Source: a virus
DNA length: 64,000 nt
IMG/VR virus record: IMGVR_UViG_3300036399_001571
Coordinates: 96,001-160,000 of that record
Direction: 5' to 3' (one strand)
A program made the translations under genes and the position numbers. Positions 2,743-30,080 of this stretch are shown here, piece after piece (the stretch's first letter is position 1; every line of letters begins with the position of its first letter). The notes beneath the pieces were generated by a model. That model was not told the DNA's origin. It saw nothing but the letters and a program-made list of their open reading frames with translations, and did not search any database.

Positions 2743-3026
2743 TTCTGTTTCCCTCCTTAAGGGTGTTTGGTTAGTTGTAGTTACCTTACAGCAGGCGATA
2801 TCAGATTTACAAAATCGCTTTACACCGTGAGGCAGTACCTACCCTAGGGCATGCGATATCAGATTTACAAAATCGATTTATCCCCACATTACCTATAGAG
2901 CAATTTTTTGATTTTTTTGCAGGGGTGTAACAGGGTTTCCCCGGGGCTATCAGCTCTTATTGTTAGGCATACCTAACAGGTTCGGCCGGGGCTCTAGGGT
3001 CGAGCGGCCGGCAAATGACCGGTGGG

Positions 3027-3209
3027 TTAGTTACAACCGCAACAGGCAGAGCAGAAAACTACTTCGCCATGTTCACCGCAGTCAGCGCGGCGCGACTCAC
3101 AAATAATGCAATTTTCTGCAGACATGGCAGCCTGCGCACGACGCTCCGCCTTTTTCTCTCCACGGTTCTTGCCTATCTTGTAGACAACATAACCACCGAG
3201 TAGACCCAC
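3027..3209 (-). CDS. Small membrane-anchored Cys-rich protein
   Basis: Hydrophobic N-terminus; CIIC..C..CSACCGC C-terminus. Confidence 0.6.
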   Translation of the reverse strand: MGLLGGYVVYKIGKNRGEKKAERRAQAAMSAENCIICESRRADCGEHGEVVFCSACCGCN

Positions 3210-3715
3210 TAGATACCAGCCTGTCTGTCAGCCTTAGCGTCCCTGACTTCCCAAAGACCTTTCTTGACCTTACGGAAGGTTGGACTCTCTTGGACGTATT
3301 TCAGAGTGGTCGGGTAGGAGAAGCCACACTGCTCCATAAGTTGCTCTGTGGTGAACTGCTCAAAATGGTGCTGGTTCGCCCACTTCAGGAACGAGTCCCA
3401 CTTGTCAGCCCGCTTCTCGGTCTTGACCTCATCTACGACAGACTCCTCATCTACCTGAATACCGCAGTACTCACTAGATACCTCTGCGATTACAGCGTCA
3501 GGAAGCGAATAGGAGAGCATGGCACGGATAGGACTGCCCTTTGCTCCGTCACGATTCCACACTTGGAGAACATGTAATGCCCTTGTGTAGTCACTGATAC
3601 CTTGGGCGACTTCCCGTGGCACGGCGAACTTATCCCCGAACTCGTCAATGGCTTCAGCCCAACGAGAGGTGTGGATATCGGTAATGGTTGATTCGGTTAT
3701 TGACTTTTTCAACAT
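3209..3715 (-). CDS. Hypothetical protein, possible C-terminal HTH
   Basis: 168-aa ORF directly downstream of promoter copy 3753 with GAAAGGAAG SD. Confidence 0.75.
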   Translation of the reverse strand: MLKKSITESTITDIHTSRWAEAIDEFGDKFAVPREVAQGISDYTRALHVLQVWNRDGAKGSPIRAMLSYSLPDAVIAEVSSEYCGIQVDEESVVDEVKTEKRADKWDSFLKWANQHHFEQFTTEQLMEQCGFSYPTTLKYVQESPTFRKVKKGLWEVRDAKADRQAGI

Positions 3716-3902
3716 AGTAGATACTTCCTTTCACCACCCACCTTACAGGAGGCGATATCAGATTTACAAACAGACTCTTCCACCACCGTCAAGATAAGGC
3801 GGCCCCCGGAGGTCATCACATTTTTTGATTTTTTTGAAAATAAAGCTCCAGGCTCTTCGGCCGAACAGTGCTACTACCCACTATCCGGCCCGAGCCCCGG
3901 TC

Positions 3903-4181
3903 TTACCCTTTTGTTTTTTCGAAAGATTTGTTCCACGTGTGCGTGTAGTAGAAACTTGCAGTCGTCTTAAGCTTTCCCTCGATGTGGAATTTAACTCGAA
4001 GGTATTCAATAGCCGCCGCTACCTCTTCATCCGTGAAGTCGTTGTCCGTGTCGTTCTCCCAGTAGCCGTTTAAAAAATCGCTTTTTGCTGTCTCCACCGC
4101 ATCTTCACCGGTGGTGGACAGTGTGTAGTAATTCTCCTCAAGAATCTCTGCAATTTGGGCGAGCACATCCATGTCAATCAT
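3903..4181 (-). CDS. Hypothetical protein
   Basis: 92-aa acidic ORF with stop/start coupling to the upstream gene. Confidence 0.7.
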   Translation of the reverse strand: MIDMDVLAQIAEILEENYYTLSTTGEDAVETAKSDFLNGYWENDTDNDFTDEEVAAAIEYLRVKFHIEGKLKTTASFYYTHTWNKSFEKTKG

Positions 4182-4588
4182 TTCGCTTCGCCTTTCAACA
4201 TCGTGTAGAGGTCGTCTATGACGCCACTAATACTTTCTTCAACAGTTTCGTTGATGTTGTTTTCAATTTTCTCTTCAATCTTTCCCAAGCCGGCAACGAA
4301 TACATTCCACAGTTCCTCTAGTGATTCCTGCTCTTCATCCGTGAATTGGTCGCCCATGGGTATGAACCTGATTTCTACAATGCCATCAGAAAGTAAATCC
4401 ATAAGTTCTTCAGGGGTAATAGATTCACGGCGTTTAGCGGAATACATCCGTCCATCCTTGGTAAAAATACCAGTGGTCATTCGACGATTTGCGTCTCTGT
4501 AGATAGAGAGGGCTTCAACAATCAGGTTTATTTCATCGAGGGTGAAACGTTTGCTGATTTGTCCAGTTACTGCTTTTTTCTTAGCCAT
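4178..4588 (-). CDS. Hypothetical protein
   Basis: 136-aa ORF, translationally coupled. Confidence 0.75.
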   Translation of the reverse strand: MAKKKAVTGQISKRFTLDEINLIVEALSIYRDANRRMTTGIFTKDGRMYSAKRRESITPEELMDLLSDGIVEIRFIPMGDQFTDEEQESLEELWNVFVAGLGKIEEKIENNINETVEESISGVIDDLYTMLKGEAK

Positions 4589-4806
4589 TACAAGGTCCTT
4601 CCTGAGAATTCAAACCATTCATCATAGGTCATACCAATAGTTCCAACAAATTCTGCATTCTCATAGAAGTCCATGATAAAGCCCTCATGGGTGATTCCAA
4701 TGTTTATGAACTTGGCGTTGACCTCGTCATAGCCACTAGTAAAGACGGTTACATCCTTGCGTGAATGCTGATTGACATCAAATGTCATCTTCTCATTGTC
4801 GCTCAC
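4588..4806 (-). CDS. Hypothetical protein
   Basis: 72-aa ORF, coupled. Confidence 0.7.
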   Translation of the reverse strand: MSDNEKMTFDVNQHSRKDVTVFTSGYDEVNAKFINIGITHEGFIMDFYENAEFVGTIGMTYDEWFEFSGRTL

Positions 4807-5207
4807 TTGTCACCTGCCTCGTCTAGGTGTCGCTTGATTGAAGCCATTTCAGCCAAGTACTCATCAAACGACATTGCGAACGGGAACTCAATCATGTTGA
4901 TGTTGTTCAGGAACAGCGAGTCCCTGAGGTCTAGTTGTTGCCAAAGGTCCAGCAGTTTGTATCCAGCACTCAGGTACTGGTCAAACGCAGTCATCCATTC
5001 CTCGGCAATGCCTACAGACACCCAAGAGTCCTCACCTTCCACCAAGGAGAGCGAACTGCCGTTGTCCCAATCAACACCGATACACATAGCGCCAGCATTA
5101 TCGTATGGCTCACGCGTAACGGTCCCTAGGTCACCCTTGCGAATCCGTGTATACGGGTCGCTAGTGCCGACTAGTTTGATTCTTTCTCCGACAAGTGTCT
5201 TTGTCAT
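4803..5207 (-). CDS. DUF4314-like protein
   Basis: Start revised to MTKTL (AAGGAG SD); GERIKL..SDPY..GDLGTV..IGVDWDNGSSLSL pattern. Confidence 0.65.
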   Translation of the reverse strand: MTKTLVGERIKLVGTSDPYTRIRKGDLGTVTREPYDNAGAMCIGVDWDNGSSLSLVEGEDSWVSVGIAEEWMTAFDQYLSAGYKLLDLWQQLDLRDSLFLNNINMIEFPFAMSFDEYLAEMASIKRHLDEAGDK

Positions 5208-5259
5208 GATTTTCTCCTTAGTAGTAGTTGAGGACATCTTAGGGTATCCGATATCAGAT

Positions 5260-5541
5260 TTACAATTTTTTAGGCATCGGGTTGCTCTGACTCACATTGT
5301 AGAGCCAGTCATCTGATGTTGGTGCTGTTTCTTCCTTTAGCCTGCGTCCACTACTTTGTCCTTCAATGATTGTGATGCCGAGAGAATCTAGGTAGTCTCC
5401 AGCTTTCATGTGAATTTCGGTCATGAGGTTGTGAACCCCATCCTTTTCAACATCGTCGCTTTCAAACAGTTCTTTATCCAAAGCGAATGTAAAATTGACT
5501 TCGTAAAAAGGTGTATCTGCATCTATTTCTTTGCGTGTCAT
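5260..5541 (-). CDS. Hypothetical protein
   Basis: 93-aa ORF in operon. Confidence 0.65.
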   Translation of the reverse strand: MTRKEIDADTPFYEVNFTFALDKELFESDDVEKDGVHNLMTEIHMKAGDYLDSLGITIIEGQSSGRRLKEETAPTSDDWLYNVSQSNPMPKKL

Positions 5542-5542
5542 T

Positions 5543-5761
5543 TCAGATGCCTTCTAGAACATCTGATGGCTTCACCTTGAGCGCTCCGCAGAGCAAGATG
5601 AGTGACTGAAGGCTAGGTGAGAAGTGTCCGTTCTCAATCCGGTTGATGGTCTTGCGCTCGAGCCCCGCCTTCTTTGCCAACGCATCTTGCGAGAGTTCTC
5701 GCTCAATACGCAAATCACGAAGTCTTGCACTAACCCGTGCTTCTTTCTTTTCGGTATTCAT
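5543..5761 (-). CDS. XRE-family helix-turn-helix transcriptional regulator
   Basis: LRDLRIERELSQDALAKKAGLERKTINRIENG..PSL pattern. Confidence 0.9.
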   Translation of the reverse strand: MNTEKKEARVSARLRDLRIERELSQDALAKKAGLERKTINRIENGHFSPSLQSLILLCGALKVKPSDVLEGI

Positions 5762-5794
5762 GTTTCTCCTTGTTAGGTGTTTATTTGGTTTATT

Positions 5795-6460
5795 TCAGTT
5801 TGCACTGAAAATCTGTTGTGAGGTCATGGCTGTATCCATGCCTTCTGCAATCTCAAATGTGAGAGCGTCTTTCCATTCCGAATACTTTTCGTCAAAGTTC
5901 TCGTCGTCGTCGTCGTATTCAGGTTGTCCCTGCATTTCGTGTTCACCTTCTGCAACAATCTCTCCTTTGTGAAAGACCATGTAGCCAGCAAAGAAATCTG
6001 CTTCCTCTGTGAAGTGCATTCCGAATACAAGTTCAGGGAACTGTTCGGAGATGTTCCTCATAAGACCAACCGCAGGGCTCCAAGCACTTTCCCAGTACAG
6101 CGTTATTGAGTTGCTGTTCTCGTCAAATGTGTCCTCGTCAAAATCAACACGGCAAGCACCCCATTTAGTGTCCCAGTTAGCATTCGCCCAGTCGTACCAG
6201 TCCTTGTGACCGTACTTAGCGAGATTTGACTCTTGTTGCTTGCGGTGTTCTTCTGCCTTCTCTTCACCAACATATCCTGAAACTGTTTCGTGCAGTTCTG
6301 TTGGAATTGGGAATAGTTGGTTCATGTCCCATTCTGTTCTGTTCCATTCAGGAATTGCTTTCCACTCTTCAGTCTGCTCAATGCGAATAGCCTCAATGAA
6401 CCGCTTCAGTTCTTTGTTGCTTCCACGAACTTCTCCGTATTGGTTGCACCAGTTAGGCAT
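5795..6460 (-). CDS. DUF1281/YubB ferredoxin-like domain protein
   Basis: MPNWC start; WYDWANANWDTKW; WESAWSP motifs. Confidence 0.75.
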   Translation of the reverse strand: MPNWCNQYGEVRGSNKELKRFIEAIRIEQTEEWKAIPEWNRTEWDMNQLFPIPTELHETVSGYVGEEKAEEHRKQQESNLAKYGHKDWYDWANANWDTKWGACRVDFDEDTFDENSNSITLYWESAWSPAVGLMRNISEQFPELVFGMHFTEEADFFAGYMVFHKGEIVAEGEHEMQGQPEYDDDDENFDEKYSEWKDALTFEIAEGMDTAMTSQQIFSAN

Positions 6461-6523
6461 TTCATTCTCCTTTTGTAGTAGTAGGTGATGTAACTATACA
6501 GGTACAAATATCAGATTTACAAA

Positions 6524-7021
6524 TTAGTACCATGCGTCAGACCCGTTACATTCATTGGCAACCCAGCGCAACCACCAAATGGCGTACTTGACTTCCTTGT
6601 CCAAGTTCTCACCGTCTTTGGTTACGGTTCCCATTTCGGTCATGCGGTTTTCCATGTCGTCTGCCAAAGCGAGGCATGATGATGGTGACTTGTATGTGCC
6701 ATCTTCGTTGTCGCCATAGAACGAATACTCAAAATCAGGAAGTTCCAGTGCTTCTATGAGGAAGTTGCCGTACTTACCCCTATACCAGCAGTCTGTTCCG
6801 AACATGCCAGTAACACTTCCTTCTTGCAAATCAGTCTTTGATACAGAGATGAGGTAAGGGCATTTGCCTTGTGCCTGCGTTTCTCTGCAGTCAATTCGCT
6901 TTTCAGATAATCCTGTTTCTTCGTCAACAATGGCTACGCCGTCTTTGTCAAGAATGTCAACTTTTACAGCAGTGCCAAGACGCTCGCAGGCGTATCGGTG
7001 TGGGATGTTGTCTAAGCCCAT
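6524..7021 (-). CDS. Hypothetical protein
   Basis: 165-aa ORF after promoter copy 7066 with AAGGAG SD. Confidence 0.8.
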   Translation of the reverse strand: MGLDNIPHRYACERLGTAVKVDILDKDGVAIVDEETGLSEKRIDCRETQAQGKCPYLISVSKTDLQEGSVTGMFGTDCWYRGKYGNFLIEALELPDFEYSFYGDNEDGTYKSPSSCLALADDMENRMTEMGTVTKDGENLDKEVKYAIWWLRWVANECNGSDAWY

Positions 7022-7169
7022 GTGGGAATCTCCTTAGTAGTAGGTGAGTACCACTGTAGCGACCCTGATATCAGATTTACAACTCTCTTCCGCCACCGTC
7101 ATGATAATAGAGGCGTATATGACCTACGGTTTTCCGGTGCGCAGGTCAGGCATCATGCCGGCATGAAAG

Positions 7170-7183
7170 CGAACACCTGTTCG
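7170..7183. promoter_or_regulatory. LexA-type SOS box CGAAC-ACCT-GTTCG
   Basis: Perfect inverted half-sites matching the actinobacterial/Firmicutes LexA consensus. Confidence 0.65.
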
Positions 7184-7236
7184 CATAGCCCCGGTGACTC
7201 AGTGGCCGCCTTGTACACCGGGGCTTTACGAGATGA

Positions 7237-7548
7237 TTATTCGCTTTGAGCTATAACCAAACTTCCATCGAGAATTTGCCATCCGTCTTCATGGTCATTC
7301 CAAATGATGGAGACTACCTCTTTGATTCCGTCTAGGTAATAGAAGACATCATCATCCTGAACTCCGAAGTCATCCCACTGCAGGTAGACAGGGTCTTTAC
7401 TGAATGAGAGGTAGTAACTCCTTGTGTCAGAGTCATCATCCCATTGAACTAGTGCGTCCATGCCAACCAGGATTCCCTCTTTAGCAATTACATTTTTCAG
7501 GTATTCCTTCAGTAATCGGAGCGTGAGTAGTGCTTTTCTAATCATCAT
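7237..7548 (-). CDS. Hypothetical protein
   Basis: 103-aa ORF, coupled. Confidence 0.7.
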   Translation of the reverse strand: MMIRKALLTLRLLKEYLKNVIAKEGILVGMDALVQWDDDSDTRSYYLSFSKDPVYLQWDDFGVQDDDVFYYLDGIKEVVSIIWNDHEDGWQILDGSLVIAQSE

Positions 7549-7862
7549 GCGCTCACTACATCTATAAGTTGTACGAATGAATCCAGTGGCTCGCTTGCGT
7601 CAGGGTACGCCCTCATTGCGTCATCAAGGAACAATTGGTAAGCACCCAAGTTGTCATGAAAGTAGCGATTCGCTCCGCCATCTCCATAATTTTCGACTCG
7701 GCAAACAGTAATCCCTTTTCTTTGAATTTCTGCAGTCCATACGATTCCTTTAGACGTTTCCATCTCGTGGATTATCTTGAAGTCGTACTGGCTAGCAATG
7801 TCGTCCACTGCTGGCTCTGTCACGAAGAGTTTTAGTGACGGTGGAAGTGTTGAATAAAGCAT
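7545..7862 (-). CDS. Hypothetical protein
   Basis: 105-aa ORF with AAGGAG SD; VENYGDGG motif. Confidence 0.75.
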   Translation of the reverse strand: MLYSTLPPSLKLFVTEPAVDDIASQYDFKIIHEMETSKGIVWTAEIQRKGITVCRVENYGDGGANRYFHDNLGAYQLFLDDAMRAYPDASEPLDSFVQLIDVVSA

Positions 7863-7899
7863 GATTTCTCCTTGTTAGTAGTTGTTTGAATTCTAGTCG

Positions 7900-8418: not shown

Positions 8419-8506
8419 TTTCTTGCTCCTTGTTAGTAGTAGTAGGTAATGAAATCTTACAGTATCAAATATCAGATTTACAAAATCGAGCTAGAGCCCC
8501 GGGCTT

Positions 8507-8857
8507 CTAGTCGCTGTTCGCTTCTATGTACTGACGCACCGCTTCCCGTAGGGCAAAACTTCGTTCAATACATTTTGACATTGCTATTCGGTTCAGTTGT
8601 TCCAAGTCATTCTGCGATATCCTAAACACGCAAATTGGGTTTATTTTTCCTTGCTCTAAGTGCTCGTCGTGCGGCGGTAACAGATTGGCTTTTCGTGACG
8701 CCATTATCCGCTTGTTAGACGTAGATATAGAAACATTCATTCTCTGCGCAACATAGCGCTGTACTGGAATGCGCTTGCTTAGTGCTTCTCTATAAAGGTC
8801 TGCAACAACCTCTAGTTCTTCGTGTGTTGTTTTTCTACCTTTATGCGTTCCTATCAT
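8507..8857 (-). CDS. Putative DNA-binding protein (HTH-like N-terminus plus C-terminal ribbon-helix-helix)
   Basis: CVFRISQNDLEQLNRIA..RSFALREAVRQYI resembles CopG/RHH. Confidence 0.55.
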   Translation of the reverse strand: MIGTHKGRKTTHEELEVVADLYREALSKRIPVQRYVAQRMNVSISTSNKRIMASRKANLLPPHDEHLEQGKINPICVFRISQNDLEQLNRIAMSKCIERSFALREAVRQYIEANSD

Positions 8858-9321: not shown

Positions 9322-9375
9322 AGTTATTGCCTTTCGTTAGTAGGTGGTAGTACCTTATCAGACCCGATATCAGAT

Positions 9376-9582
9376 TTACAATTGCTCATAAATCATCAGT
9401 TCTTCTTCATCAGAGAATGGATTTGAGTGCCGACCAATTCCAGTTACCCACATTTTTCGACCTTGCTGACCGCTGTCACCAATTGCGTCTTGCACCTGTG
9501 CTATCGCAAGCCCCGCTGCCGCTCCATCATCAACGCCTGTTACATCAAGCGTGACCATTACTGTCACTCGGTATGTATTCAT
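9376..9582 (-). CDS. Hypothetical protein
   Basis: Start revised to MNTYRV (TAATG overlap with the upstream gene). Confidence 0.6.
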   Translation of the reverse strand: MNTYRVTVMVTLDVTGVDDGAAAGLAIAQVQDAIGDSGQQGRKMWVTGIGRHSNPFSDEEELMIYEQL

Positions 9583-9851
9583 TAGTAAGTACTCCAATCG
9601 TAGTTGTCGTTTTTGTGTGCGATTTCCTCTGAACAAACTCCGATTACCTTTAGAGTTTCGCCGTCAATGATACGGCTACATTTCTCGCAAAGATAAACCT
9701 GCCCGTCCCAATCTCCATAGATAGTTGGCGAGACAATCTCTCCAGTCCTTAGGCAAGAGTAAAAGCCCTCGTAGTTTGGTTGGTTGCCACATAGGCACTG
9801 GAACCAATCAGTAGTGCCACCTATGAACTCCTCAAATAGTCGGTTGCTCAT
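9582..9851 (-). CDS. Small Zn-binding hypothetical protein
   Basis: CLCGN and CEKCSRII motifs. Confidence 0.7.
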   Translation of the reverse strand: MSNRLFEEFIGGTTDWFQCLCGNQPNYEGFYSCLRTGEIVSPTIYGDWDGQVYLCEKCSRIIDGETLKVIGVCSEEIAHKNDNYDWSTY

Positions 9852-10096
9852 TTGTCCACTCTCCCGTCCATAATCATTGCGTAGCGGATTAGTTCCTCAA
9901 CCAATTCCACACACTCCCAATCGTTCGCCTCTTGCCCGTCAATATCTTTCACGGCGAGAATACCGTCAAGGACAAACCCTGCATAGCCGTCCTGCATTTC
10001 GCTGGTTGGTTCCGCATTTGGGTCACTGGCGAGATTATAGAAAGGTTGTAGGTATCTGTCGTGCCACTCTTGCGCTGTTATCTTGTCTGTTTCCAT
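9848..10096 (-). CDS. Hypothetical protein, probably a leaderless transcript
   Basis: ATG of METDK lies 7 nt after the -10 TATGAT of promoter copy 10117. Confidence 0.65.
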   Translation of the reverse strand: METDKITAQEWHDRYLQPFYNLASDPNAEPTSEMQDGYAGFVLDGILAVKDIDGQEANDWECVELVEELIRYAMIMDGRVDK

Positions 10097-10291
10097 AAGT
10101 ACCATCATAGGGAACCCGATATCAGATTTACAAACCACCTCTTCCGCCACCGTCAAGATAATAAGGGTGGGTAGGTAGTCGTTTTTTTGCAGAGCGATTT
10201 ATTTATTTTTTGCGATTTTTTTTATTTTTCTGGATAGCCCCGCAGCACATTCTGGGCCGTACTGAGGCCGGGGCTCCTGGTGGAAAATAGC

Positions 10292-11078: not shown

Positions 11079-11268
11079 GGTATTTCCTTTCGTAGTAGTT
11101 GAGATAGACACTACACGAGCCGATATCAGATTTACAAAATTGTTAGGAGCCCCGCTGGGTAGGTAGTCAGGCATCGAGGCGGGGCTTTTCACGCGCATAA
11201 GGAAGCCCTGCCCACCAGTTACGGCAGGCAGGGCTTCGGTTGTTCGTAGGGGTGAAAGGGGTAAAGCC

Positions 11269-11706: not shown

Positions 11707-12034
11707 CGGTAGTTCCTTTCGGTAGTAGTTGATTAGATAAGCACTACTCACCTTAGCCAGCCCGATATCAGATTTACAAAACACGGGTAGCCGATATGAG
11801 AGCCCCGCTGGGCTAATCTCTTTGGGTGAACGAACTAGAGCAAGCAAGAAGCCGGGGCTTATCAAAAAGAATTGCCGAGTTCGATATCGAGTTGTACAAC
11901 CTTTGGATACAGATAAGAGCCGTAGAGGAAAGTAACGCCGAGTTCACTGCCGACAATTTGCGCAAAAGTTTCAGGGTAATAACAAAAGAGGGCTAGAGAT
12001 TTCTCTCTAACCCTCTTTCGGTAGGTGGATAGGA

Positions 12035-12433: not shown

Positions 12434-12631
12434 ATTTTGTTCACCCCCTTCGGTGTCTGTAGTAGGTAGTACCACTATATACCACCCGATATCAGATTTA
12501 CAAAATCGCTTGACGAAGTACAGAGCCCCGTCTTTGCCTTTGTTTGGTTGGTTTGCGGGGCTTTTGGGCGCACGAAAAAAAAGAGGGGCAGGTTTCCCCA
12601 CCCCTCTCTCCTTTTCGGTAGCCAGTTGTGA

Positions 12632-13054: not shown

Positions 13055-13212
13055 TATGCCCTGCCTTTCGTAGTAGTTGATTGGGGCAGTAACGACATTA
13101 CAACACCCGATATCAGATTTACAAAGTGCTTTCCGCCACCGTCATCTAAACACCGATACTTGACAAGCCCTCTCACACCTGCTAGCGCACCAACTTTTTT
13201 CGGCTGGTTGGG

Positions 13213-13226
13213 CGAACATATGTTCG
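13213..13226. promoter_or_regulatory. LexA-type SOS box CGAAC-ATAT-GTTCG
   Basis: Perfect palindrome in an intergenic spacer. Confidence 0.65.
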
Positions 13227-13316
13227 GTGAGCCCCGGTGGGTCAGCCCGCACGGCGGGGCTTATTCATAAAAAATGGCAGAGAGCTCGAAGCCCCCTGCC
13301 TAATTTTTATCGAGTG

Positions 13317-13721: not shown

Positions 13722-13790
13722 TTTTTCCCTCTTTCGTAGTAGTTGATTAGAGATTACAGGAATAGATATCAGATTTACAAAACAATTTGA

Positions 13791-13955: not shown

Positions 13956-14137
13956 AAGCACCCCTTTCGTTGAGTAGTAGTACCTTACAGGAACCGATAT
14001 CAGATTTACAAAAATACATAGCCCCGCTAGCTTTGCGACAGGTTGTACAGCGGGGCTTTCATAGCGGCAAATAGATTGCGCTGCGCACCCATTACTAGAA
14101 GTGGGTTCTGTTGCCAAGCCCCACTCGGCTCCGTTTG

Positions 14138-14374: not shown

Positions 14375-14491
14375 ATTCACCCCCTTTCAAAGAAGTGTGG
14401 TTCGAGCGGTTCTCGAACGCAGTAGCACCTTAGTAAACCCGATATCAGATTTACAAAACAGCAAGGGCGCAAATAAGCCCCGGCACAACTC

Positions 14492-14662: not shown

Positions 14663-14820
14663 AGTGATATGACCTTATCAAACTAGATATCAGATTTCCA
14701 AATTGAACAATAAGCCCCGGCATTAGGAGAAAGCAATACCTCTAATGAGGCGGGGCTCCTGGCCAAATAAGTGACGCAGGTTTCCCCACGCCACCTAATC
14801 GGTTGAACTTGCTTCGCTGA

Positions 14821-15228: not shown

Positions 15229-15412
15229 AGTAAACACTTTACGGTATGCGATATCAAATTTACAATTCACGACTGGCCACCCCTGCGCCTTCAGGAGCGT
15301 GGTTTGAGCCCCGCATACCAACTGTCTTGGGTGTTGGAGTGGCGGGGCTATAAAGCCAAAAAAGTCGAGCAACCTACTGGCTGCCCGACTTCTCGGAGGG
15401 TTTTACTGGCGC

Positions 15413-15670: not shown

Positions 15671-15690
15671 AATGTTCCACGTGGAACATT
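15671..15690. promoter_or_regulatory. parS-like perfect palindrome AATGTTCCACGTGGAACATT
   Basis: 16-bp core TGTTCCACGTGGAACA versus chromosomal parS TGTTTCACGTGAAACA. Confidence 0.7.
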
Positions 15691-15760
15691 TCCTTACAAG
15701 ACCAACTCTAGTACACCTGATATCAGATTTACAACTTCACTTTTTAGCCCCGTCTTGGGG

Positions 15761-15774
15761 CGAACATATGTTTG
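15761..15774. promoter_or_regulatory. LexA-type SOS box CGAAC-ATAT-GTTTG (1 mismatch)
   Basis: Lies inside an AGCCCCG/CGGGGCT pair upstream of promoter copy 15718. Confidence 0.55.
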
Positions 15775-16008
15775 CAGCCGTAGGCGGGGCTATAAAACTA
15801 AAATGTCGGGCAACCGATTTGGCTACCCGACACTTTCAGTCGATTTGGATTTTGTCAAACACTTCGGCTCGAGCATTGAGCATCGCCCAATGAAAAGCGT
15901 CCATGAAAATCTGCTGCTTCTCTGCCGACCTGAACTCTCGCTCGGCGTGGGCTCGAGCCTCGGCGGTCTTAACCGCCAAGAGCCCGACCCACCACTCGAC
16001 CTTCTCGT

Positions 16009-16275: not shown

Positions 16276-16297
16276 GAATGTTCCACGTGGAACATTC
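16276..16297. promoter_or_regulatory. parS-like perfect palindrome GAATGTTCCACGTGGAACATTC
   Basis: Second copy of the 16-bp core (16279-16294), between promoter and SD. Confidence 0.7.
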
Positions 16298-16549
16298 GGT
16301 TTTTCTTACAAGACCAACTCTAGTACACCCGAAAGAGAATTGCAACTTTTATTTATAGCCCCGCAGAAGTTTTTTTCATTTAACATACAGATGACATACA
16401 GGTAACATACAAATTTTCGTCAGCAGAAGGGCAGGCGGGGCTGTTTTGAGAAAAAAATAAGCCACACCAAAACTCAACGCAGGTTGAAAGGGGTAAAACG
16501 CGGAGTAATGGTGTGGCTATTTATTAGTAGGTATTGCTACCCACTAAAC

Positions 16550-17052: not shown

Positions 17053-17384
17053 AATTTCCCCTTTCCGAGAAACTTACGGGGATACTTTCCCCGTTGAGAT
17101 AACAGTACAGGACTAGATATCAGATTTACAAAATTACTTATTGCGCTTTATTACTGCGTAGATATAGGTAAAGATAACGCCACTAAGAAACCCAATAATT
17201 AGCCCTTGTGTGTACATAACTGCTTGCACGATTTTTTCTTTCCGTTGTAGGTGATACTAAATTACAGGCTTGTAGTGATTATGTCAAGGATTTCGATATA
17301 GCCCCGCATATCGGGCTGAGCCCGTCTAATAGCCGGGGCTCCGGGAAAAATTTCAGCCGGGTGAACAGGCTGAAACTGGTGGGC

Positions 17385-17761: not shown

Positions 17762-17854
17762 TTTGTGCCCCTTTCAGTTGGCCTTGCTTCCGTGCTCCAA
17801 ACATTACAACACGCGATATCAGATTTACAAAACGGGCGAACAGGCCAGCCCGGG

Positions 17855-17868
17855 CGAACATGTGTTCG
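17855..17868. promoter_or_regulatory. LexA-type SOS box CGAAC-ATGT-GTTCG
   Basis: Perfect half-sites about 25 bp upstream of the -35 of promoter copy 17814. Confidence 0.65.
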
Positions 17869-18287: not shown

Positions 18288-18454
18288 TGTGTCCCCTTTC
18301 GTGGAACTCGTTTACAAAATAAACTTTACAGTACGCGATATCAGATTTACAAAAATTGGAATTTTTTACATAGCCCCGCTGCCGGATTTTTTATTACTAT
18401 GCCGGGGCTAGCTAAGAAAAAAGAGCAGGCGCTTTCGCACCCACTCTCTCTCCG

Positions 18455-18646: not shown

Positions 18647-18718
18647 TTCGTGCCCCTTTCGTAAGGCTTGTTGTTGTTACTGATTACATTACAGCAAGCG
18701 ATATCAGATTTACAAAAG

Positions 18719-18732: not shown

Positions 18733-18824
18733 CCCAGCCCCGCTGCACCTTCGTGTAAAGAATTTATGCCGGGGCTTTCAGCAATGAATATCGTTGACTG
18801 AATAATTCATAAAGTGAAAACGCA

Positions 18825-19151: not shown

Positions 19152-19373
19152 TGCTATCCCCTTTCAGTTGGATAAATAAATCGTACAACAAGCGATATCA
19201 GATTTACAAAATACCCTCGAGCCCCGCAGTCGCGGTTACAGACGCGCTCTCTGCTGTCATCAAGTGAAGTCGTATGTCAAGAAGCAAGTCCTGCATTTCG
19301 CTTGAGGCTACGAGTTCACGGCTAGAGATATTGACTAGCGCCTTATCAAGAAGTGTGATTATTTCTTTTTCGT

Positions 19374-20414: not shown

Positions 20415-20507
20415 TACTTATCCCCTTTCTAAGGGCTTGTTGTTGTTAGTAATAACTTAGGGCAACGGATATCAGATTTACAAATCCACTTATAGCCCCG
20501 GTGGATG

Positions 20508-20840: not shown

Positions 20841-20991
20841 TGCTCTCCCTTTCAGTAGGTAACTAAATCATATCCGAGCCGATATCAGAATTACAGGATA
20901 CCCGTGCGGGGCTATTTCGAGCCTTTATGGATTTGTAAATCTGATATTGGGGACTATATGCTTTACTTATCCACGAGAAAAGGGGAAAGAA

Positions 20992-22526: not shown

Positions 22527-22744
22527 CCAAGCCTCATTGCGCCAATTGTTGGGTTCATTTCTCCAAGCGTCTTGCCAGCCGTATTGTTCGTGACGGCAAC
22601 CCGAGCGTCAAGGTTGTTGAGTGCCACCTGAACTGCGTCAAGTTTCTTGTTTATTTCCTCAACCGAATTCATTACCGACTTCATTGCTTGTTCTAACGAG
22701 GCTTCTATTTCCATAACGCCAAGCATAGCAAGTATGATGAGCCA

Positions 22745-24667: not shown

Positions 24668-24754
24668 GCCCCGCACTCGCTTCCGTTCTGTAAATCTGAT
24701 ATCGGGCTTACTAGGCTTACGTTGCCGTAAGGCAAACGAGCCCAATGAAAGGGG

Positions 24755-24940
24755 GTGAGCAAAATGGAACAGTGGCAAGAGGAGGGTTTCGCTTCAGAGG
24801 AGGAATTCTTTGAGTTACAGCGAAGCCTTTGCGAGGAGGAACAGCGGGCGGAATTCATTATGAGTTACGTCGCTGGTGGTGGCTTGTCAAGCGAGGCGCA
24901 AATCGCTTGGTTTCACCACAACCACTCGTGGGGCGAGTAA
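24755..24940 (+). CDS. Small hypothetical protein in its own promoter cassette
   Basis: Follows rightward promoter copy 24688. Confidence 0.6.
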   Translation: MSKMEQWQEEGFASEEEFFELQRSLCEEEQRAEFIMSYVAGGGLSSEAQIAWFHHNHSWGE

Positions 24941-25001
24941 CCCACAGAGGCAGGGGCTGGGGCTGGCAACCCTTGTCCCTCGCCTGCGCGTGTGGCGGGG
25001 C

Positions 25002-25424
25002 TTACTCGGTTTCTTTGGTTGGAACTCTGCCCATAAGTTCGTCAGCAATTAGTTTTGCGTACTTTCTGCGCAGTTTCCATACTTTTTGGTTCATTTCAGC
25101 CATTGCGTCAGTGTTTCGTGCTTTCTTTATGCTGTCGCTGTCAAACACGCCGTACTTTCTGAACAAGATGTCGTCAATATCGTTGTTTTCTATCATTATG
25201 TCGGTAATCCAATGGCCCCGCTTGTCAATGCTAAGCAACAGTTCGCAAAGACCCTCAAATCCAAACTCGTTATAGACACGATTAGTCACTAAGTCACAAA
25301 AATGCGCACGATACATAGTCTCGGCTTCGGCAGTGTGCGTCATAAACTCACTCAGCCATACGGCGAGTTCTTCTTTTGACGGAATATCACCGTCTTCACT
25401 GTCAAACTCAAAGTCGTCTTCCAT
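25002..25424 (-). CDS. Hypothetical protein
   Basis: 140-aa acidic ORF. Confidence 0.75.
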   Translation of the reverse strand: MEDDFEFDSEDGDIPSKEELAVWLSEFMTHTAEAETMYRAHFCDLVTNRVYNEFGFEGLCELLLSIDKRGHWITDIMIENNDIDDILFRKYGVFDSDSIKKARNTDAMAEMNQKVWKLRRKYAKLIADELMGRVPTKETE

Positions 25425-25480
25425 TAGCCTGCCTTCCGTTGCGCCGGGGCTCTAGTAATCAATGATACTTGTGGCAACTG

Positions 25481-26506
25481 TCAAGCCAAAGACAGAATAA
25501 CTTCTTGCGCTAACACTTTCTTTTGTGTCACCCACGAGTTGTTGTTCATTGAGGCAAGCGCCCGTTCATCTGCTTTTGCGTCACGATAATGGTCAAGGTA
25601 TTCAGCAATAGCGTTGTAAGCACTCCACCCGTTATACCCGTAGCCACCTGCGTTGCGTTCGTTGTCATACACGCCACGAACTAATGCCACTACCCCGTCA
25701 CGGTTTTTCTTTTGTCTCTCCGTACCGTTCATTTCGTTCGGGAATACCTTGTCAAGTATCGTTGCGAGTTGCGCACTTCGTGGTGGAACGTTGATAGCAA
25801 GCAAGCGATTAGCCGTAAGTTGGAATGACTTCGCCCACTCCGTTGATATTTCTAGGACTTTTTGCGCTTCCTCAATAGCATTATCAGCGTTACGAGTGTG
25901 TCGTGCCGTGAATACCCGACGAGCCGACGACTGCCCTGCGATTACCGTGTTTTTACACACCGCACGAATTGAGGTATTGGCAAAGGTGATAGCCGTCTTA
26001 CCGTCGTGTCCGTTGCGAACTAGCAAGTAACGGTCTATCTTGTCGTTGATACCCGTAGGGTCTATGACGAGTTGCCCCAAGTCAAGCGAACTAAAGAACT
26101 CTCTACCTTCGTCAAGTACGCCACAAGTATCTACTACTGCGTCGCCCTTAGAAGCCCCGACTATTGCGAGGGCATACTCCAAGCACTCACGGTTTTGCTG
26201 TACGACATAGCGAGTGCCAACCGTAGCAAGTCCGTCAAAAGTGCCGTCGGGGTTCACTCTCACGGTTGCCCGACTGTCCTCAATAACGACTGGCGTATTA
26301 TCAGGATTTCTGATTAGGTTGCCCTCTGCGTCTACGACTGCGACTTTAGTAGTGACGACATCAAAGTCTGCTTGCGCCGCCTGAAGCATTGCCTCTGCTG
26401 TTTGTAGCCCCTTCATAGGCACTCCAAGCCTATGCCACGGGACTTCACGGTCTGCGTAAGCCATTTTCGCTACGCCCTTAGTGTCTACTTCTAGCATATG
26501 CGCCAT
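25481..26506 (-). CDS. DUF932-family phage/plasmid protein
   Basis: MAH..PWHRLG; YVVQQN; RNGHDGK; RAVCKNT; RHTRN; GWSAYNAIAEY.DH. Confidence 0.9.
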   Translation of the reverse strand: MAHMLEVDTKGVAKMAYADREVPWHRLGVPMKGLQTAEAMLQAAQADFDVVTTKVAVVDAEGNLIRNPDNTPVVIEDSRATVRVNPDGTFDGLATVGTRYVVQQNRECLEYALAIVGASKGDAVVDTCGVLDEGREFFSSLDLGQLVIDPTGINDKIDRYLLVRNGHDGKTAITFANTSIRAVCKNTVIAGQSSARRVFTARHTRNADNAIEEAQKVLEISTEWAKSFQLTANRLLAINVPPRSAQLATILDKVFPNEMNGTERQKKNRDGVVALVRGVYDNERNAGGYGYNGWSAYNAIAEYLDHYRDAKADERALASMNNNSWVTQKKVLAQEVILSLA

Positions 26507-26655
26507 AACTTCGTGCCTCTCGCTGTTACTTCTAGTTAGATTTATCTAAAGGCAAGCATACACTCGCCCCCTGCCTCACAGTGTATGCCGGGGCTATCTC
26601 GACATAACAAAAAGGGGGGCAGGCTGTGACACCTACCCCCTTCGCTTTCGTTTTG

Positions 26656-26880
26656 TTAGTTGTATTCGTTGGTTAGCCAGTCATCACTTGACTTAGTGAC
26701 TGGCGTAGCGAACTGACCAAATAACTGGCGAGCATATGGTGCGACAATTTCAGCGCCTCGCTTGACGGTCTGAAACTGCGTCACCTTTCTACCTGCCTTG
26801 TATCCAACGGCACTACCTAAGCCGAACGATACGACTGCTGTCATTGTTAGTAGTACGAGTACTGCGATTATTTCTATCAC
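26656..26880 (-). CDS. Small membrane protein
   Basis: N-terminal TM; AAAGGGG SD. Confidence 0.7.
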   Translation of the reverse strand: MIEIIAVLVLLTMTAVVSFGLGSAVGYKAGRKVTQFQTVKRGAEIVAPYARQLFGQFATPVTKSSDDWLTNEYN

Positions 26881-26916
26881 TTGCTTCCCCTTTGTTAGTA
26901 GTAACTTACCTACCTA

Positions 26917-26945
26917 AGTATAGGGATAGTCATAGTACTTGTCAA
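26917..26945 (-). promoter_or_regulatory. Canonical sigma70/HrdB-type promoter TTGACA-N17-TATACT
   Basis: Near-consensus hexamers with 17-bp spacing upstream of 26656-26880. Confidence 0.75.
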
Positions 26946-27051
26946 GTCACCCGTACGACACCCGTAGGCACTTGCGAACTTCACAGAAATACGACTTGTG
27001 CCGTGTTTGTGTGGTTGTATAGGTGGCGTGGTGGCTATAAGCCCCGGCTTT

Positions 27052-27330
27052 TCACTGCCTCTTGTCGTCTACGAACTCTGCGTATGCTTTCAGTGCTTCA
27101 TCAGGTGCGCCGTCTACTAGATATTGGTGCATAACGCCTGCGAGGTCACGCCACTTGCCGTCACTTAGTACCTTCTCGGTAATCGTGTAGCCTTCGTGTT
27201 CGGTTGCCCAACTTATTGAGTGGGGCTGTGCCTTGTGTAGATAAGCAACGGCTTCGTAGTAAGTGCCGAAACTCTCAAGCACTGCGCCGTCTCTCGCTAC
27301 TTCGTAACTAATCTGCGCTTCTGTGTTCAC
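27052..27330 (-). CDS. Hypothetical protein
   Basis: 92-aa ORF; YLHKAQPHSISWATEHEGY. Confidence 0.7.
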   Translation of the reverse strand: MNTEAQISYEVARDGAVLESFGTYYEAVAYLHKAQPHSISWATEHEGYTITEKVLSDGKWRDLAGVMHQYLVDGAPDEALKAYAEFVDDKRQ

Positions 27331-27599
27331 TTGTCAAACCTCACTTCTTGAGACACTCGGATTACTTGTCCGTACTTCGCCACTAGGTCATCAGTCGCTT
27401 TCAGTGTGTTGCCGTGACACCACTTGACTGCTAAGCCACTTAGGGTATCGCCTTCCTGAACGATTACTCGGTCAATATCGCAACGATAATTTTCGTCGCC
27501 TCGCATTGAGATAATCATTGCGATAATCGTCACGAGGAATACGAGTGGGAGTGTAATCAGGTCACGCTTGCTTGGTCGGTTTGTGTAGTGGTTGTTCAT
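27327..27599 (-). CDS. Membrane-anchored LysM-domain protein
   Basis: TM LPLVFLVTIIAMII; VIVQEGDTLSGLA LysM pattern. Confidence 0.75.
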   Translation of the reverse strand: MNNHYTNRPSKRDLITLPLVFLVTIIAMIISMRGDENYRCDIDRVIVQEGDTLSGLAVKWCHGNTLKATDDLVAKYGQVIRVSQEVRFDK

Positions 27600-27808
27600 T
27601 GTCTGCCCCTTTCAGTAGGTACTAATTACACTAGGGTAGTTTGTGACAAAGGTCAAGGATTTCCGAGCCTTATGGGCATTGGGTTATACCCGTAGGGCTA
27701 CCCGTAGGCACTGCGCCAACCTCATAGGGATTAGTAGGTGGCAGGGTGAGTGTGTTGCCACTACCTATGCCGGGGCTTCGAGCTTGCTGTTCGGTAATGG
27801 CAGGTGGA

Positions 27809-28591
27809 TTACTTAGTGACGGTGCGCTTCTTTGGTGACTTCTTAGTGACTTGCTTCTTTGGGGCGGTGCGCTTGCTCACTGTCACTGATTTGTTTGGCG
27901 TGGGTAGCACTGTCACGGTAATCGCTCTAGCACTCTCAACCACTAGCACTGTCGTTGTTGTCGTTGTCGTAGGTGCTTCGGTAATCACTGGCTCACTCTC
28001 AACCACTGTCACTGGCTCACTGTCTGCTACTGCTTCGGCTGTCTCGGATACAGGGACTGTCGTAGTCGTGGGTGCGATAGTCGTTGTCGTAGTCGTAGGG
28101 GCGAGGGTAGTCGTAGTCGTAGTCGTGGTCGTAGGTGCTTCGCTCACGGCTTCATTACAACTAACTGAACAGTCGCCATTGGTGACTACTGGATTACTAC
28201 TAGCACCAACCAACTGATAGACGGCACTACGAGCGAGGGCGGTATCTATTCCGTCACGCCATAGGGCGAGCATAAAGTTAGGGCGATAGCCGTTGCCACC
28301 TGAACCGTGACCAATACCAACTCCGACATATTCGCACACTGCGAACCATTGGTGCGCTTTCGCTATCGCCTTACCTAGTGCGCTATGACCACCATTGGAA
28401 TAGGTAACTAATCTCTCAAATGCTTCAGTGCCTATCTCGGTGTCAATAATCGTTATGACTGTCGGTTGCTGTGACGAGGGTGCTTCTCTCGGCTCACTAC
28501 ACTCACTTGCTCTCGCTTCGGTGATAGTGACAAGGGGTAGCGATAGCGATAGGGCTAGGGCTAATGCGATAAAGGTTCGTGCTTGCTTCAT
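27809..28591 (-). CDS. Secreted/membrane Thr-rich (mucin-like) protein
   Basis: Signal-like N-terminus MKQARTFIALALAL; poly-Thr/Pro tracts; basic C-terminus. Confidence 0.7.
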   Translation of the reverse strand: MKQARTFIALALALSLSLPLVTITEARASECSEPREAPSSQQPTVITIIDTEIGTEAFERLVTYSNGGHSALGKAIAKAHQWFAVCEYVGVGIGHGSGGNGYRPNFMLALWRDGIDTALARSAVYQLVGASSNPVVTNGDCSVSCNEAVSEAPTTTTTTTTTLAPTTTTTTIAPTTTTVPVSETAEAVADSEPVTVVESEPVITEAPTTTTTTTVLVVESARAITVTVLPTPNKSVTVSKRTAPKKQVTKKSPKKRTVTK

Positions 28592-28649
28592 AGTAACTCT
28601 CTCTCGGTATGGGCTACCCGTAAGGCTACCCGTAGGCATTGGAATTTTT

Positions 28650-29006
28650 TCACTTTTTTTCGCTTATCCACTCACCACCACTGGCGAACACTGTCTCTCC
28701 CTCATTGGTGAAACTCCAAGCGTAATCGCAACAAGGCTTTTGCTCATAGGGGCTAGGGTGTGCGCCTTTCTCTAGCGACTTCGCTAGTAGTGGGAATGTC
28801 TCTAGTAACTTGACGATACAAGCGTGGCAGATATTCCACGACTTAGGTTCACTATCAGACATTAGAAACTCAAGGTTGTCGGTGAAACCACCATAGAAAC
28901 CAAATGCTTCATAGGGTAAGCACCAACCACTGTCTAGTGTTGTTGCTGTCGGGTGACTTACGAGCTTGACTTCATCACAAGCGTCACACTTCACTGCGTT
29001 GCTCAT
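28650..29006 (-). CDS. Zn-binding hypothetical protein
   Basis: CDAC...CHAC. Confidence 0.7.
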   Translation of the reverse strand: MSNAVKCDACDEVKLVSHPTATTLDSGWCLPYEAFGFYGGFTDNLEFLMSDSEPKSWNICHACIVKLLETFPLLAKSLEKGAHPSPYEQKPCCDYAWSFTNEGETVFASGGEWISEKK

Positions 29007-29296
29007 AGTGCGTACTCTCCACGCTTACGGCGATAGTGCGATACAAAGTCATCACTGTCGTAGTCACAAGGCGTCCACACTATGTCGGCTTCGCTAAAGG
29101 TATCGTCAAGGTGTAAGCGAACTACTACATAGTCAAATGCGTCATAGGCGTTGTATGCGATAAACCTCATACAGCCTACGAGGGTAGAACGGTGTTCGTA
29201 GTGACTAGGTAAGTCATAGCGACACATACTCCAAGCGTCACCATAAGAGGGACACTCAACCACTGCGTACCTGCGTCTATCTTTCTCAATAGTCAT
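29003..29296 (-). CDS. Hypothetical protein, leaderless candidate
   Basis: ATG 6 nt after the -10 TACGCT of promoter copy 29316. Confidence 0.65.
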   Translation of the reverse strand: MTIEKDRRRYAVVECPSYGDAWSMCRYDLPSHYEHRSTLVGCMRFIAYNAYDAFDYVVVRLHLDDTFSEADIVWTPCDYDSDDFVSHYRRKRGEYAL

Positions 29297-29338
29297 AGTG
29301 TAAGCGTAGGGTAGGTGATATCAGAATTACTAAATGGG

Positions 29339-29422
29339 GTAAGCAAGTAGGTAAGAGTAAGCAACGAGGTAAGCGAGTAGGTAGGTAAGCGAGTAAGTAA
29401 GTAGGTAGGTAAGTAGGTAGGT
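29339..29422. repeat. Low-complexity GTAA/GTAG tetranucleotide array
   Basis: GTAAGCAAGTAGGTAAG...GTAGGTAGGTAAGTAGGTAGGT, 84 bp. Confidence 0.8.
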
Positions 29423-29538
29423 GTTACCCGTATGCTACCCGTGTGCCTTGCGTTAGTCATACTCTCTCAACTTCAGTGCGAAATAGATAAGGGCGATACT
29501 TGCTAGGCAGAATAACTCAAGCACTGTCTCACCACTCA

Positions 29539-29739
29539 TTAGTCATTGCCTTGCGTATCGTTGCTATCCACTGCGTAGTCACTGCTGTCAAGCGTGAACT
29601 TAGGCATAACGAATAGCGTGTTGCCTATGCTGTATGCGTTACGGCTTGCGTTGTAAATTGCGTCAGGGAATAAGCGAACTAAGTCAATTGCTTTCAGTGG
29701 CGTATCGCTTAGGTGAACTATGTTGCGTATTCGTGCCAT
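29539..29739 (-). CDS. Hypothetical protein
   Basis: Start tentatively MARIRN. Confidence 0.5.
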   Translation of the reverse strand: MARIRNIVHLSDTPLKAIDLVRLFPDAIYNASRNAYSIGNTLFVMPKFTLDSSDYAVDSNDTQGND

Positions 29740-29752
29740 TGTCGTTGTCGCT

Positions 29753-29977
29753 TTACTTCGTACTAGCGACTGCGTGTGCGTAATAAATATCGTCACACCA
29801 CTCTGCCAACTTCACTAAGTCGGCGACTAACGAACCTTGCGAGTTGAGCAACCCACGCAACCCATCAGGCAATGTTTGTGAATTGCTGTCACCACTGCGT
29901 GTTGTGTTGTGTATCGCCGTGATTAGGTCGCTAGCAATTTTTGCTATGTCACCAAAGTCGTTTGCGTTGTATACCAT
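29753..29977 (-). CDS. Hypothetical protein
   Basis: Start revised to MVYNAN after AAGGGGG SD and promoter copy 30019. Confidence 0.65.
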   Translation of the reverse strand: MVYNANDFGDIAKIASDLITAIHNTTRSGDSNSQTLPDGLRGLLNSQGSLVADLVKLAEWCDDIYYAHAVASTK

Positions 29978-30066
29978 AATGCCCCCTTGTGTAGTAGTTA
30001 CGGTAAGCATAGCGTATGCGATATCAGATTTACAAAACGCCTTCCAGAGTGGTAGGCGGGGCTCTT

Positions 30067-30080
30067 CGAACACCTGTTCG
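30067..30080. promoter_or_regulatory. LexA-type SOS box (T)CGAAC-ACCT-GTTCG
   Basis: Perfect half-sites at the right boundary of the cassette region. Confidence 0.65.

Follow-up and report, generated by a model that had tools for sequence, protein, structure and literature searches.

The closest described counterparts of the locus reported here are the PeSL cassettes of T4-type phages, of which phi1 and RB49 carry about 50 per genome (Arbiol et al. 2010, PMC2839356; Comeau et al. 2014, PMC4122927) and whose promoters match the host sigma-70 consensus and carry an AT-rich upstream region (PMC2839356, PMC4122927). Our locus is an array of about 30 promoters which divide some 60 small, mostly uncharacterised genes into units of one to four genes. 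It occupies positions 2.8-30.1 kb (hereafter "the arm") of a stretch of 64,000 nucleotides ("the window") corresponding to bases 96,001-160,000 of the 172,519-bp virus record IMGVR_UViG_3300036399_001571; the phage under study, which is uncultured, is designated G000. One 17-bp block, located at about -36 to -20, comprises a TTG-type -35 element together with the 11 leading base pairs of the 18-bp spacer; it is followed by seven variable nucleotides (N7) and a -10 element of the form TANNNT. The layout of the arm is of the known PeSL cassette kind. As in PeSL arrays, a repeated host-type promoter and a GC-rich stem-loop stand at the joints of small uncharacterised genes within a hyperplastic region. 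In PeSL arrays indels and replacements between close relatives lie at these joints, and in the arm they may do so as well. Judged at the sequence level, many copies of a host-type promoter precede small genes, 14 inverted heptamer pairs which are predicted to fold into stable stem-loops follow upstream stop codons, and the region is rich in ORFans, with a Pfam match in only about 5 of 56 arm proteins. In contrast to the PeSL phages, G000 belongs to another phage lineage and most likely infects another host phylum, part of its transcripts are predicted to be leaderless, its 17-bp -35/spacer block is invariant within the genome and rewritten between lineages, and its stem arms are of fixed sequence, enclosing centres of mostly 24-32 unpaired nt. 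Hence, the layout itself is already known, while the new element is the lineage-private block which changes in concert over all copies; in the literature searched, such a block is not described for cassette arrays of this kind.

T4 middle promoters combine a MotA box at -30 with a sigma-70-type -10 element, and through MotA/AsiA sigma appropriation one factor switches a class of genes. They resemble the G000 promoters in that a host-type TAnnnT is joined to a conserved element centred near -30; host sigma does not read this element in T4 and would not do so in G000. They differ in that the G000 block comprises 17 bp instead of 9-10 bp and in that the TTG of the -35 element is kept in most lineages. 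Searches of G000 for MotA and AsiA (PF09114, PF09010) gave no match, which are weak negatives as the control searches were without a match too, and lineage-by-lineage rewriting is, to our knowledge, not a described feature of MotA boxes.

Two further systems stem from mycobacteriophages. The stoperators of the temperate Cluster A phages are asymmetric sites of 13-14 bp which are found genome-wide and evolve together with the repressor (PMC6550527, PMC9283540). The G000 block likewise occurs in about 30 asymmetric copies which are oriented with transcription and differ in sequence between related actinophages. Stoperators, however, are scattered and not phased with a -10 element, whereas the G000 sites all lie within promoters on a single arm. 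Neither a cognate repressor nor signs of a temperate lifestyle became apparent in G000, as no integrase or resolvase was found in a search of the record and no repressor tracks the block. Cluster O phages harbour over 30 copies of an invariant 17-bp repeat, and between two such repeats a single instance of a gene being gained or lost has been described (PMC4351075). Although the G000 block shares with this repeat its length, its invariance, its copy number and its occurrence in an actinophage, the repeat of Cluster O forms a perfect 7-3-7 palindrome, lacks a fixed orientation, often lies in genes and is not tied to predicted promoters. Promoters of the T7 type differ from those of G000 as well: conservation in G000 is not contiguous through +1, and a search of G000 for a single-subunit RNA polymerase (PF00940) gave no match, again a weak negative since the control search was also without a match.

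The promoter array and its lineage-specific block

With up to three mismatches allowed, the 17-mer TTGTAAATCTGATATCG matches the window 30 times, compared to 0.11 matches expected and a maximum of 2 in 100 shuffles. Nineteen of these copies are perfect and 27 are located on the minus strand. They span window positions 2796-30035, densely up to 20.9 kb and sparsely beyond, and the whole record contains 31 matches, all of them at genome positions 95.4-126.0 kb. The TTGTAA-spacer-N7-TANNNT array that had been proposed from the letters of the window alone, dense to about 21 kb, sparse to 30 kb and then ending, is thus confirmed by the whole-genome scan and restricted to one arm. TANNNT follows exactly 7 nt after the block in 30 of the 31 genome copies. 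The conserved stretch extends from 2-3 nt before the TTG to a G after the block, while the N7 before the -10 element and everything else is unconserved. The -10 element is of the actinobacterial sigma-A type; hexamers resembling a -35 element are poor throughout the lineages and missing altogether from L149. Most copies are followed by the start of an open reading frame (ORF) with a ribosome site 18-46 nt past the inferred transcription start, and in three of the 31 (10117, 29316 and probably 14685) an ATG stands 6-9 nt past the -10 element. The divergent pair at 20880/20933 parts the arm into a long leftward and a short rightward series, the latter containing a WhiB gene and the helicase gene. 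Outside the arm no other strongly repeated regulatory words were found. A scan for the block in one genome each of 185,579 species returned 14 scattered single matches in unrelated taxa, and its interpretation as a host regulon or prophage site was rejected on these grounds. The copies in the window are the following, each comprising block, N7 and -10 element.

Promoter copies (window coordinates, strand)
2783-2812, minus: perfect block; drives the AAA_5 ATPase gene 2017-2742
2841-2870, minus: perfect block, in tandem with 2783-2812
3740-3769, minus: perfect block
5236-5265, minus: perfect block
6493-6522, minus: 2 mismatches at the 3' end of the block
7053-7082, minus: 1 mismatch
8454-8483, minus: 2 mismatches
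9352-9381, minus: perfect block
10104-10133, minus: perfect block; leaderless ATG at 10096
11108-11137, minus: perfect block
11750-11779, minus: perfect block
12474-12503, minus: perfect block
13095-13124, minus: perfect block
13751-13780, minus: 1 mismatch
13982-14011, minus: perfect block
14427-14456, minus: perfect block
14672-14701, minus: G at block position 4 (G001 state); ATG 9 nt after the -10
15236-15265, minus: T at block position 9 (G001 state)
15705-15734, minus: 1 mismatch; parS-like palindrome in the leader
17102-17131, minus: 1 mismatch
17801-17830, minus: perfect block
18323-18352, minus: perfect block
18686-18715, minus: perfect block
19180-19209, minus: perfect block
20454-20483, minus: 1 mismatch
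20867-20896, minus: 2 mismatches; leftward member of the divergent pair
20933-20962, plus: 1 mismatch; rightward member of the divergent pair, upstream of the WhiB gene and the SNF2 helicase gene
24688-24717, plus: 1 mismatch
29303-29332, minus: diverged, 3 mismatches; leaderless ATG at 29296
30006-30035, minus: perfect block; last copy of the arm

The host of G000 is most likely an actinobacterium, because the capsid protein is Gordonia-like (48% identity to Gordonia phages), WhiB proteins are encoded and leaderless starts occur. The record, whose G+C content amounts to 45%, encodes three WhiB-family proteins, a primase, a ribonucleotide reductase and an SNF2 helicase. A search for an integrase or resolvase was without result, so that lysogeny is not evident and the phage is most likely virulent. 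Near-identity and protein searches of a phage collection yielded distant relatives only, the Gordonia phages with their 48% capsid identity being the best.

Close relatives were obtained from metagenomes. A scan of JGI metagenomes with the block plus the -10 element as query revealed one identical contig and five further ones at 80-95% identity which differ by cassette-sized indels. An exact 16-mer scan of IMG/VR gave single chance matches only, because the relatives carry other blocks. A search with the helicase, by contrast, led to 53 IMG/VR loci ranging from 99% down to 54% protein identity, with full-length matches to 58%. The whole or large records that we compared are G001 (160 kb, 98% capsid identity), G002 (148 kb, 78%) and G003 (90 kb, 90%). 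The promoter geometry and the arm are common to all lineages; the block differs from lineage to lineage, with at least seven types being distinguishable. TTG at -35 is kept in most of them and is missing from the L149 type.

Blocks of the relatives
G001: TTGGAAATTTGGTATCG, 34 copies
G002: TTGTCGG, 3-4 nt, then GGGGTGGG, about 47-55 copies; spacer of 18 bp in 46 of 47
G003: TTGTATCTGTCCTGTGC, 29 copies
L144 clade: TTGTTT, then TACC.CTTACTACC, 12 copies
L149: AATCCGGAGAA, 2 nt, ACGCA, 21 copies
L126: CTAGACAT.TGTTGTA, about 13-20 copies

The start codon of a leaderless mRNA must stand at the 5' end of the transcript. In G002 a start codon opening an ORF lies 6-7 nt past the -10 element in 36 of 47 copies, and in G003 such a codon is found 5-7 nt past it in 13 of 29. 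These predicted leaderless starts are the strongest available evidence that we are dealing with working promoters, and the start codons at a distance of 6-7 nt from the -10 element point to a transcription start about 7 nt after TANNNT. As the geometry is kept across lineages and leaderless starts are present in the relatives, the promoters are therefore real and read by a sigma-A-type polymerase; their identification as promoters in the sequence-only reading is borne out by this comparison.

The behaviour of the block between G000 and G001 is the most informative. Both genomes are collinear including the arm, with 85-93% nucleotide identity and a median identity of 90% between shared proteins. 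We compared the 18 promoter pairs whose two flanks are both homologous. All 18 pairs differ at block position 4, 17 of them at position 12 and 14 at position 9, whereas the other core positions (1-15) differ in 0-4 pairs; positions 16 and 17 at the 3' end, which also vary within G000, differ in 7 and 8. Every pair retains its own variable 7-mer and its own -10 element. Drift would not be expected to alter the same bases in parallel at 18 separate sites, and gene conversion would need a tract of less than 17 bp at each of them. The simplest cause of this concerted change would be selection by a single trans-acting reader. That an invariant spacer implies a sequence-specific factor had already been concluded from G000 alone; the relatives make a stronger case for it than the single genome. 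The copies at 14685 and 15249 of the window represent single-step intermediates towards G001, and several G001 copies are likewise intermediate. To the left of the window, next to the gene of the 123-residue HA-domain protein described below, lies a block-like copy without a -10 element (genome 95455-95471, plus strand). Its G001 counterpart has followed the concerted change incompletely, positions 9 and 12 of the block still showing the bases of G000.

The gene content of the arm is in flux. Between G000 and G001 it differs by 16 indels or replacements of at least 60 bp, giving 32 breakpoints. Within 60 bp of a block or heptamer lie 66% of these, compared to 28% of random positions, and within 40 bp of a block 41%, compared to 22% of random intergenic positions (P 0.011); for hairpins only, the enrichment over intergenic positions is borderline (P 0.06). 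All breakpoint figures are approximate because the gene list is rough. At 12 of 30 promoters homology to G001 exists on one flank only. About 13 of 56 arm genes (~23%) are without a homolog in G001 and about 42 of 56 (~75%) without one in G002, where the shared arm genes stand in a different order. The non-identical order is in line with the cassette shuffling suggested in the sequence-only reading. Of that suggestion, gain, loss and rearrangement are thus evident from the 16 indels and from the changed order in G002; the repeat is a candidate recombination substrate.

The proposed reader of the block and competing explanations

We assign a probability of roughly 0.6 to the explanation that the arm is a regulon of about 30 promoters with PeSL-like joints whose block is read by a lineage-specific phage factor. 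The sigma-A-type polymerase of the actinobacterial host would read TANNNT and start about 7 nt downstream, while a sequence-specific phage protein peculiar to the lineage would bind the 17-bp block. This factor most likely turns on all copies together by helping or replacing sigma region 4. Each phage lineage would thereby own a private promoter code, presumably to its advantage, and the repeated joints would be the places of gene gain, loss and replacement, possibly through recombination at the repeats. We lean towards an activating role of the reader because nearly all copies are perfect, the -35 hexamers are poor in all lineages and the spacer measures 18 bp; with nearly every copy kept perfect, each gene seems to need its block. 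What we observe are the geometry and statistics of the motif, the leaderless starts, blocks that differ by lineage and change in concert at orthologous promoters, and the turnover of cassettes; binding by a factor, activation as opposed to repression, early timing and recombination at the repeats are what we infer.

According to the sequence comparisons, the block is probably read by a phage protein specific to the lineage. In G000 a search for sigma region 2 gave no match, and no complete phage sigma was detected. Several DNA-binding proteins were considered as readers. In all five genomes the outer edge of the arm encodes a 123-residue protein with a helicase-associated (HA) domain and a helix-turn-helix (HTH; genome 94946-95317, plus strand, in G000), its HTH being nearly invariant; it was rejected as its DNA-binding part is unchanged while the block differs. 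An unchanged DNA-binding part also led to the rejection of a 213-residue HTH protein (window 41363-42004), of the XRE protein (5543-5761; identical in G000 and G001), of a 210-residue "MerR-like" protein (30136-30768), for which no Pfam match was found, and of the three WhiB proteins, compared between phages with differing blocks. The RHH gene at 8507 gives a marginal E of 0.09 and has no ortholog in G001; L075 and L083 carry unrelated sequence in its place, and L083 still possesses the G000 block. Consequently, neither XRE, MerR-like and WhiB proteins, whose DNA-binding parts are identical where blocks differ, nor RHH 8507, with its marginal score and its absence from G001 and L083, can be upheld as the cognate regulators for which they had been taken. 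A further screen covered fast-evolving proteins common to three genomes. Its best case, a 142-residue protein (genome 70961-71389, minus strand), was dismissed as a reader, being beta-rich and virion-like and without a DNA-binding signal. With an identity of no more than 44-48% to its counterparts in the close as well as the distant relative, it is probably a fast-evolving virion or host-contact protein. The other fast-evolving proteins in this screen had no Pfam match.

One lead emerged outside the window. The giant virion polyprotein (genome 166570-172479) contains, between two Leu-Ser-Ser-Gly joints, a module of 165 residues (genome 170920-171414, minus strand; L074:10920-11414) which carries two tandem sigma-region-4-like HTH domains (Pfam E 4e-10 over two stretches). 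Its identity amounts to 73% in G001 and to 40% in G003; of the two domains the first is well kept and the second variable, and in G003 a third sigma-region-4-like copy is present. A model of the module reaches a mean pLDDT of 77, and single units taken from it can be superposed on structures of sigma-4 domains at 2-3 Å; a fold search with this model returned no match reaching E 0.001. Since it is absent from G002 and the polyprotein region as a whole has diverged, the module counts as a lead only. In the blocks of G000 and G001, two nTGnnA half-sites can be recognised 8 bp apart, the fourth base of both having changed, and such a pair would suit a tandem reader. That the module is cut out, injected with the DNA and binds both half-sites as a surrogate of sigma region 4 strikes us as a long shot. 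If true, it would provide the incoming genome with a private promoter code which relatives or the host could neither use nor silence; lineages without the module, such as G002, would use another reader.

Several observations weigh against a regulon read by a lineage-specific activator. No reader was found among the recognisable DNA-binding proteins compared in G000, G001 and G002; all of the shared HTH and WhiB proteins compared have a DNA-binding part which is unchanged between G000 and G001, and for several this extends to G002. The polyprotein module, the sole HTH candidate that changes, is absent from G002. The TTG kept in most lineages could let host sigma region 4 bind unaided. The "early" timing of the arm is only an analogy, and in the relatives the arm sits mid-map, not at the map end. 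Finally, the combined enrichment of breakpoints at promoters or hairpins over intergenic positions is not significant (P 0.14).

The most serious rival, which we nevertheless hold to be unlikely, regards the block as an operator: host polymerase would fire unaided, and a lineage-specific phage repressor would later silence the phage's own regulon or that of a superinfecting relative, operator and repressor diversifying as in heteroimmune phages. A TTG-type -35, TANNNT and an 18-bp spacer could indeed work unaided, the block overlaps the -35 element and the spacer as operators commonly do, and its asymmetry, copy number, orientation with transcription and divergence between relatives recall the Cluster A stoperators (PMC6550527, PMC9283540). 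Yet no integrase or resolvase and no evident lysogeny accompany it, and the only clear Cro/C1-type protein of the arm, which G002 lacks, has an HTH that does not differ between G000 and G001. Moreover, if the block were an operator, its loss from one small gene ought to be tolerable, whereas 19 of 30 copies are perfect, and the L149-type blocks without TTG at -35 resemble activator dependence. We consider it still less probable that there is no dedicated reader at all and that the block is part of a strong host-polymerase promoter kept uniform by recombination between copies (molecular drive), the differences between lineages reflecting drift of a recombination address. Exchanges do occur at or next to the block, as seen from the 12 of 30 promoters with G001 homology on one flank, breakpoints are enriched near blocks, and single-step intermediates exist within genomes (14685, 15249 and the G001 variants). 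However, the 18 orthologous promoters with homology on both flanks have kept N7 and -10 element and nonetheless changed at the same three positions, which would require 18 conversion tracts of less than 17 bp each; host polymerase is not known to read 11 bp of the spacer, and lineages probably living on similar hosts use unrelated blocks, be they AT-rich or GC-rich. A phage-encoded sigma or polymerase too diverged for Pfam and co-evolving with the block in the manner of T7-type polymerases appears very improbable to us. Lineage-specific promoters of at least 17 bp are typical of phages with their own polymerase, and most proteins of the genome are without annotation; but, unlike in promoters of the T7 type, the conserved part is separated by 7 nt from a degenerate TANNNT of host type and does not extend to the start region, and matches to sigma region 2 or to a single-subunit polymerase are lacking, the latter negative being weak in view of its control.

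Stem-loops, host-type sites and leaders at the joints

At a typical joint a stop codon is followed by a GC-rich stem-loop or inverted heptamer pair, the promoter, a short leader and a ribosome site. The heptamer AGCCCCG and its complement CGGGGCT occur 28 and 26 times in the arm, compared to once each outside, and form 14 inverted pairs in which the C-rich arm always comes first, with predicted folding energies (dG) of -13 to -29 kcal/mol. The stop codon of the gene before often directly adjoins the 5' arm. Between the nearer arm and the adjacent block, the distance measures 9-22 nt in 8 of the 14 pairs and 42-623 nt in the others.

Inverted heptamer pairs (window coordinates)
7187-7225: stem-loop, dG -29.3
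10236-10275: stem-loop
11148-11186: 11 nt upstream of a promoter block; homology to L075 resumes here
11801-11859: pair
12524-12562: pair
13230-13261: just after terminator 13300-13276
14020-14057: pair
14713-14757: pair
15307-15349: pair
15746-15791: just after terminator 15836-15800
16357-16442: pair with a 72-nt centre
17300-17340: pair
18372-18409: pair
18736-18776: just after terminator 18859-18823

Because three predicted canonical intrinsic terminators with stems of 11-16 bp and a T run (13300-13276, 15836-15800 and 18859-18823, minus strand) directly precede such pairs, the heptamer pair is an element separate from the terminator. In G002 the heptamer is situated at the tip of ordinary hairpins. 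An integron-like interpretation of the heptamers was dropped in view of these hairpin tips, the lack of an integrase and the fact that each cassette has its own promoter. A scan of the arm against Rfam gave no match.

The SOS boxes, parS-like sites and heptamer pairs which the sequence-only reading had noticed in the spacers proved to be real sites. Four 14-bp palindromes CGAACA-N2-TGTTCG, presumably matching the core of the actinobacterial LexA box, are present in the arm, compared to about 0.03 expected in 30 kb; the arms of G001 and G003 contain four and seven, that of G002 none. Perfect parS-like palindromes number two in G000 and one each in G001 and G003, while G002 has three canonical parS sites and one variant (114843, 127910, 128742, 130456), three of these four directly upstream of promoters. 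The only ORF of G000 with a ParB_N domain is located at genome 12917-13711. In the L135 and L144 clades perfect DnaA-box pairs (TTATCCACA) stand just upstream of the promoter block, in the position taken by heptamer pairs in G000; in the G000 window DnaA boxes are not enriched. The recurrence of LexA-like, parS-like and DnaA sites at the joints suggests that host DNA-binding proteins may also act on the arm. Finally, an 18-bp box starting TTGACGGTGG is found 2-8 nt upstream of the block at three to four promoters. It is kept in G002 and L149 although their blocks are unrelated, which suggests that it would have a reader common to all lineages.

Further sites (window coordinates unless stated otherwise)
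7170-7183: LexA-box-like 14-bp palindrome
13213-13226: LexA-box-like 14-bp palindrome
17855-17868: LexA-box-like 14-bp palindrome
30067-30080: LexA-box-like 14-bp palindrome
15673-15688: perfect 16-bp parS-like palindrome, in a leader
16279-16294: perfect 16-bp parS-like palindrome
3775-3792, minus: 18-bp upstream box next to the -35 element, also kept in other lineages
7085-7102, minus: 18-bp upstream box
10139-10156, minus: 18-bp upstream box
L144, 2308-2330 and 635-655: DnaA-box pairs (examples)
L135, 1938-1962 and 4460-4480: DnaA-box pairs (examples)

The 7-mer CTACTAC, formerly thought to begin the transcripts, is a real word of the arm (19 occurrences, compared to 2 outside) but does not mark the 5' end and is present in only about half of the leaders. 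The ribosome site follows it after 0-6 nt, and its distance from the -10 element varies (e.g. window 5215-5230, 6470-6490 and 8425-8450). It may act in translation or RNA stability and would then be comparable to the start-associated sequences that some mycobacteriophages have. The leader word CTACTA is kept in G003 and L149 despite their differing blocks. As to the record as a whole, its last ~1.29 kb (171228-172519) repeat its first bases (1-1292), which would reflect either an overlap from circular assembly or terminal redundancy.

Implications

Arrays of promoter-plus-hairpin cassettes are a known way in which phages organise and exchange accessory genes. The phages compared here add a natural series of close relatives in which about 30-55 promoters per genome have changed the same bases together, with no complete phage sigma detected. 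This series offers a direct handle on a promoter-specificity factor of actinobacterial phages, and it could show whether virulent phages keep private transcription codes which isolate them from co-infecting relatives.

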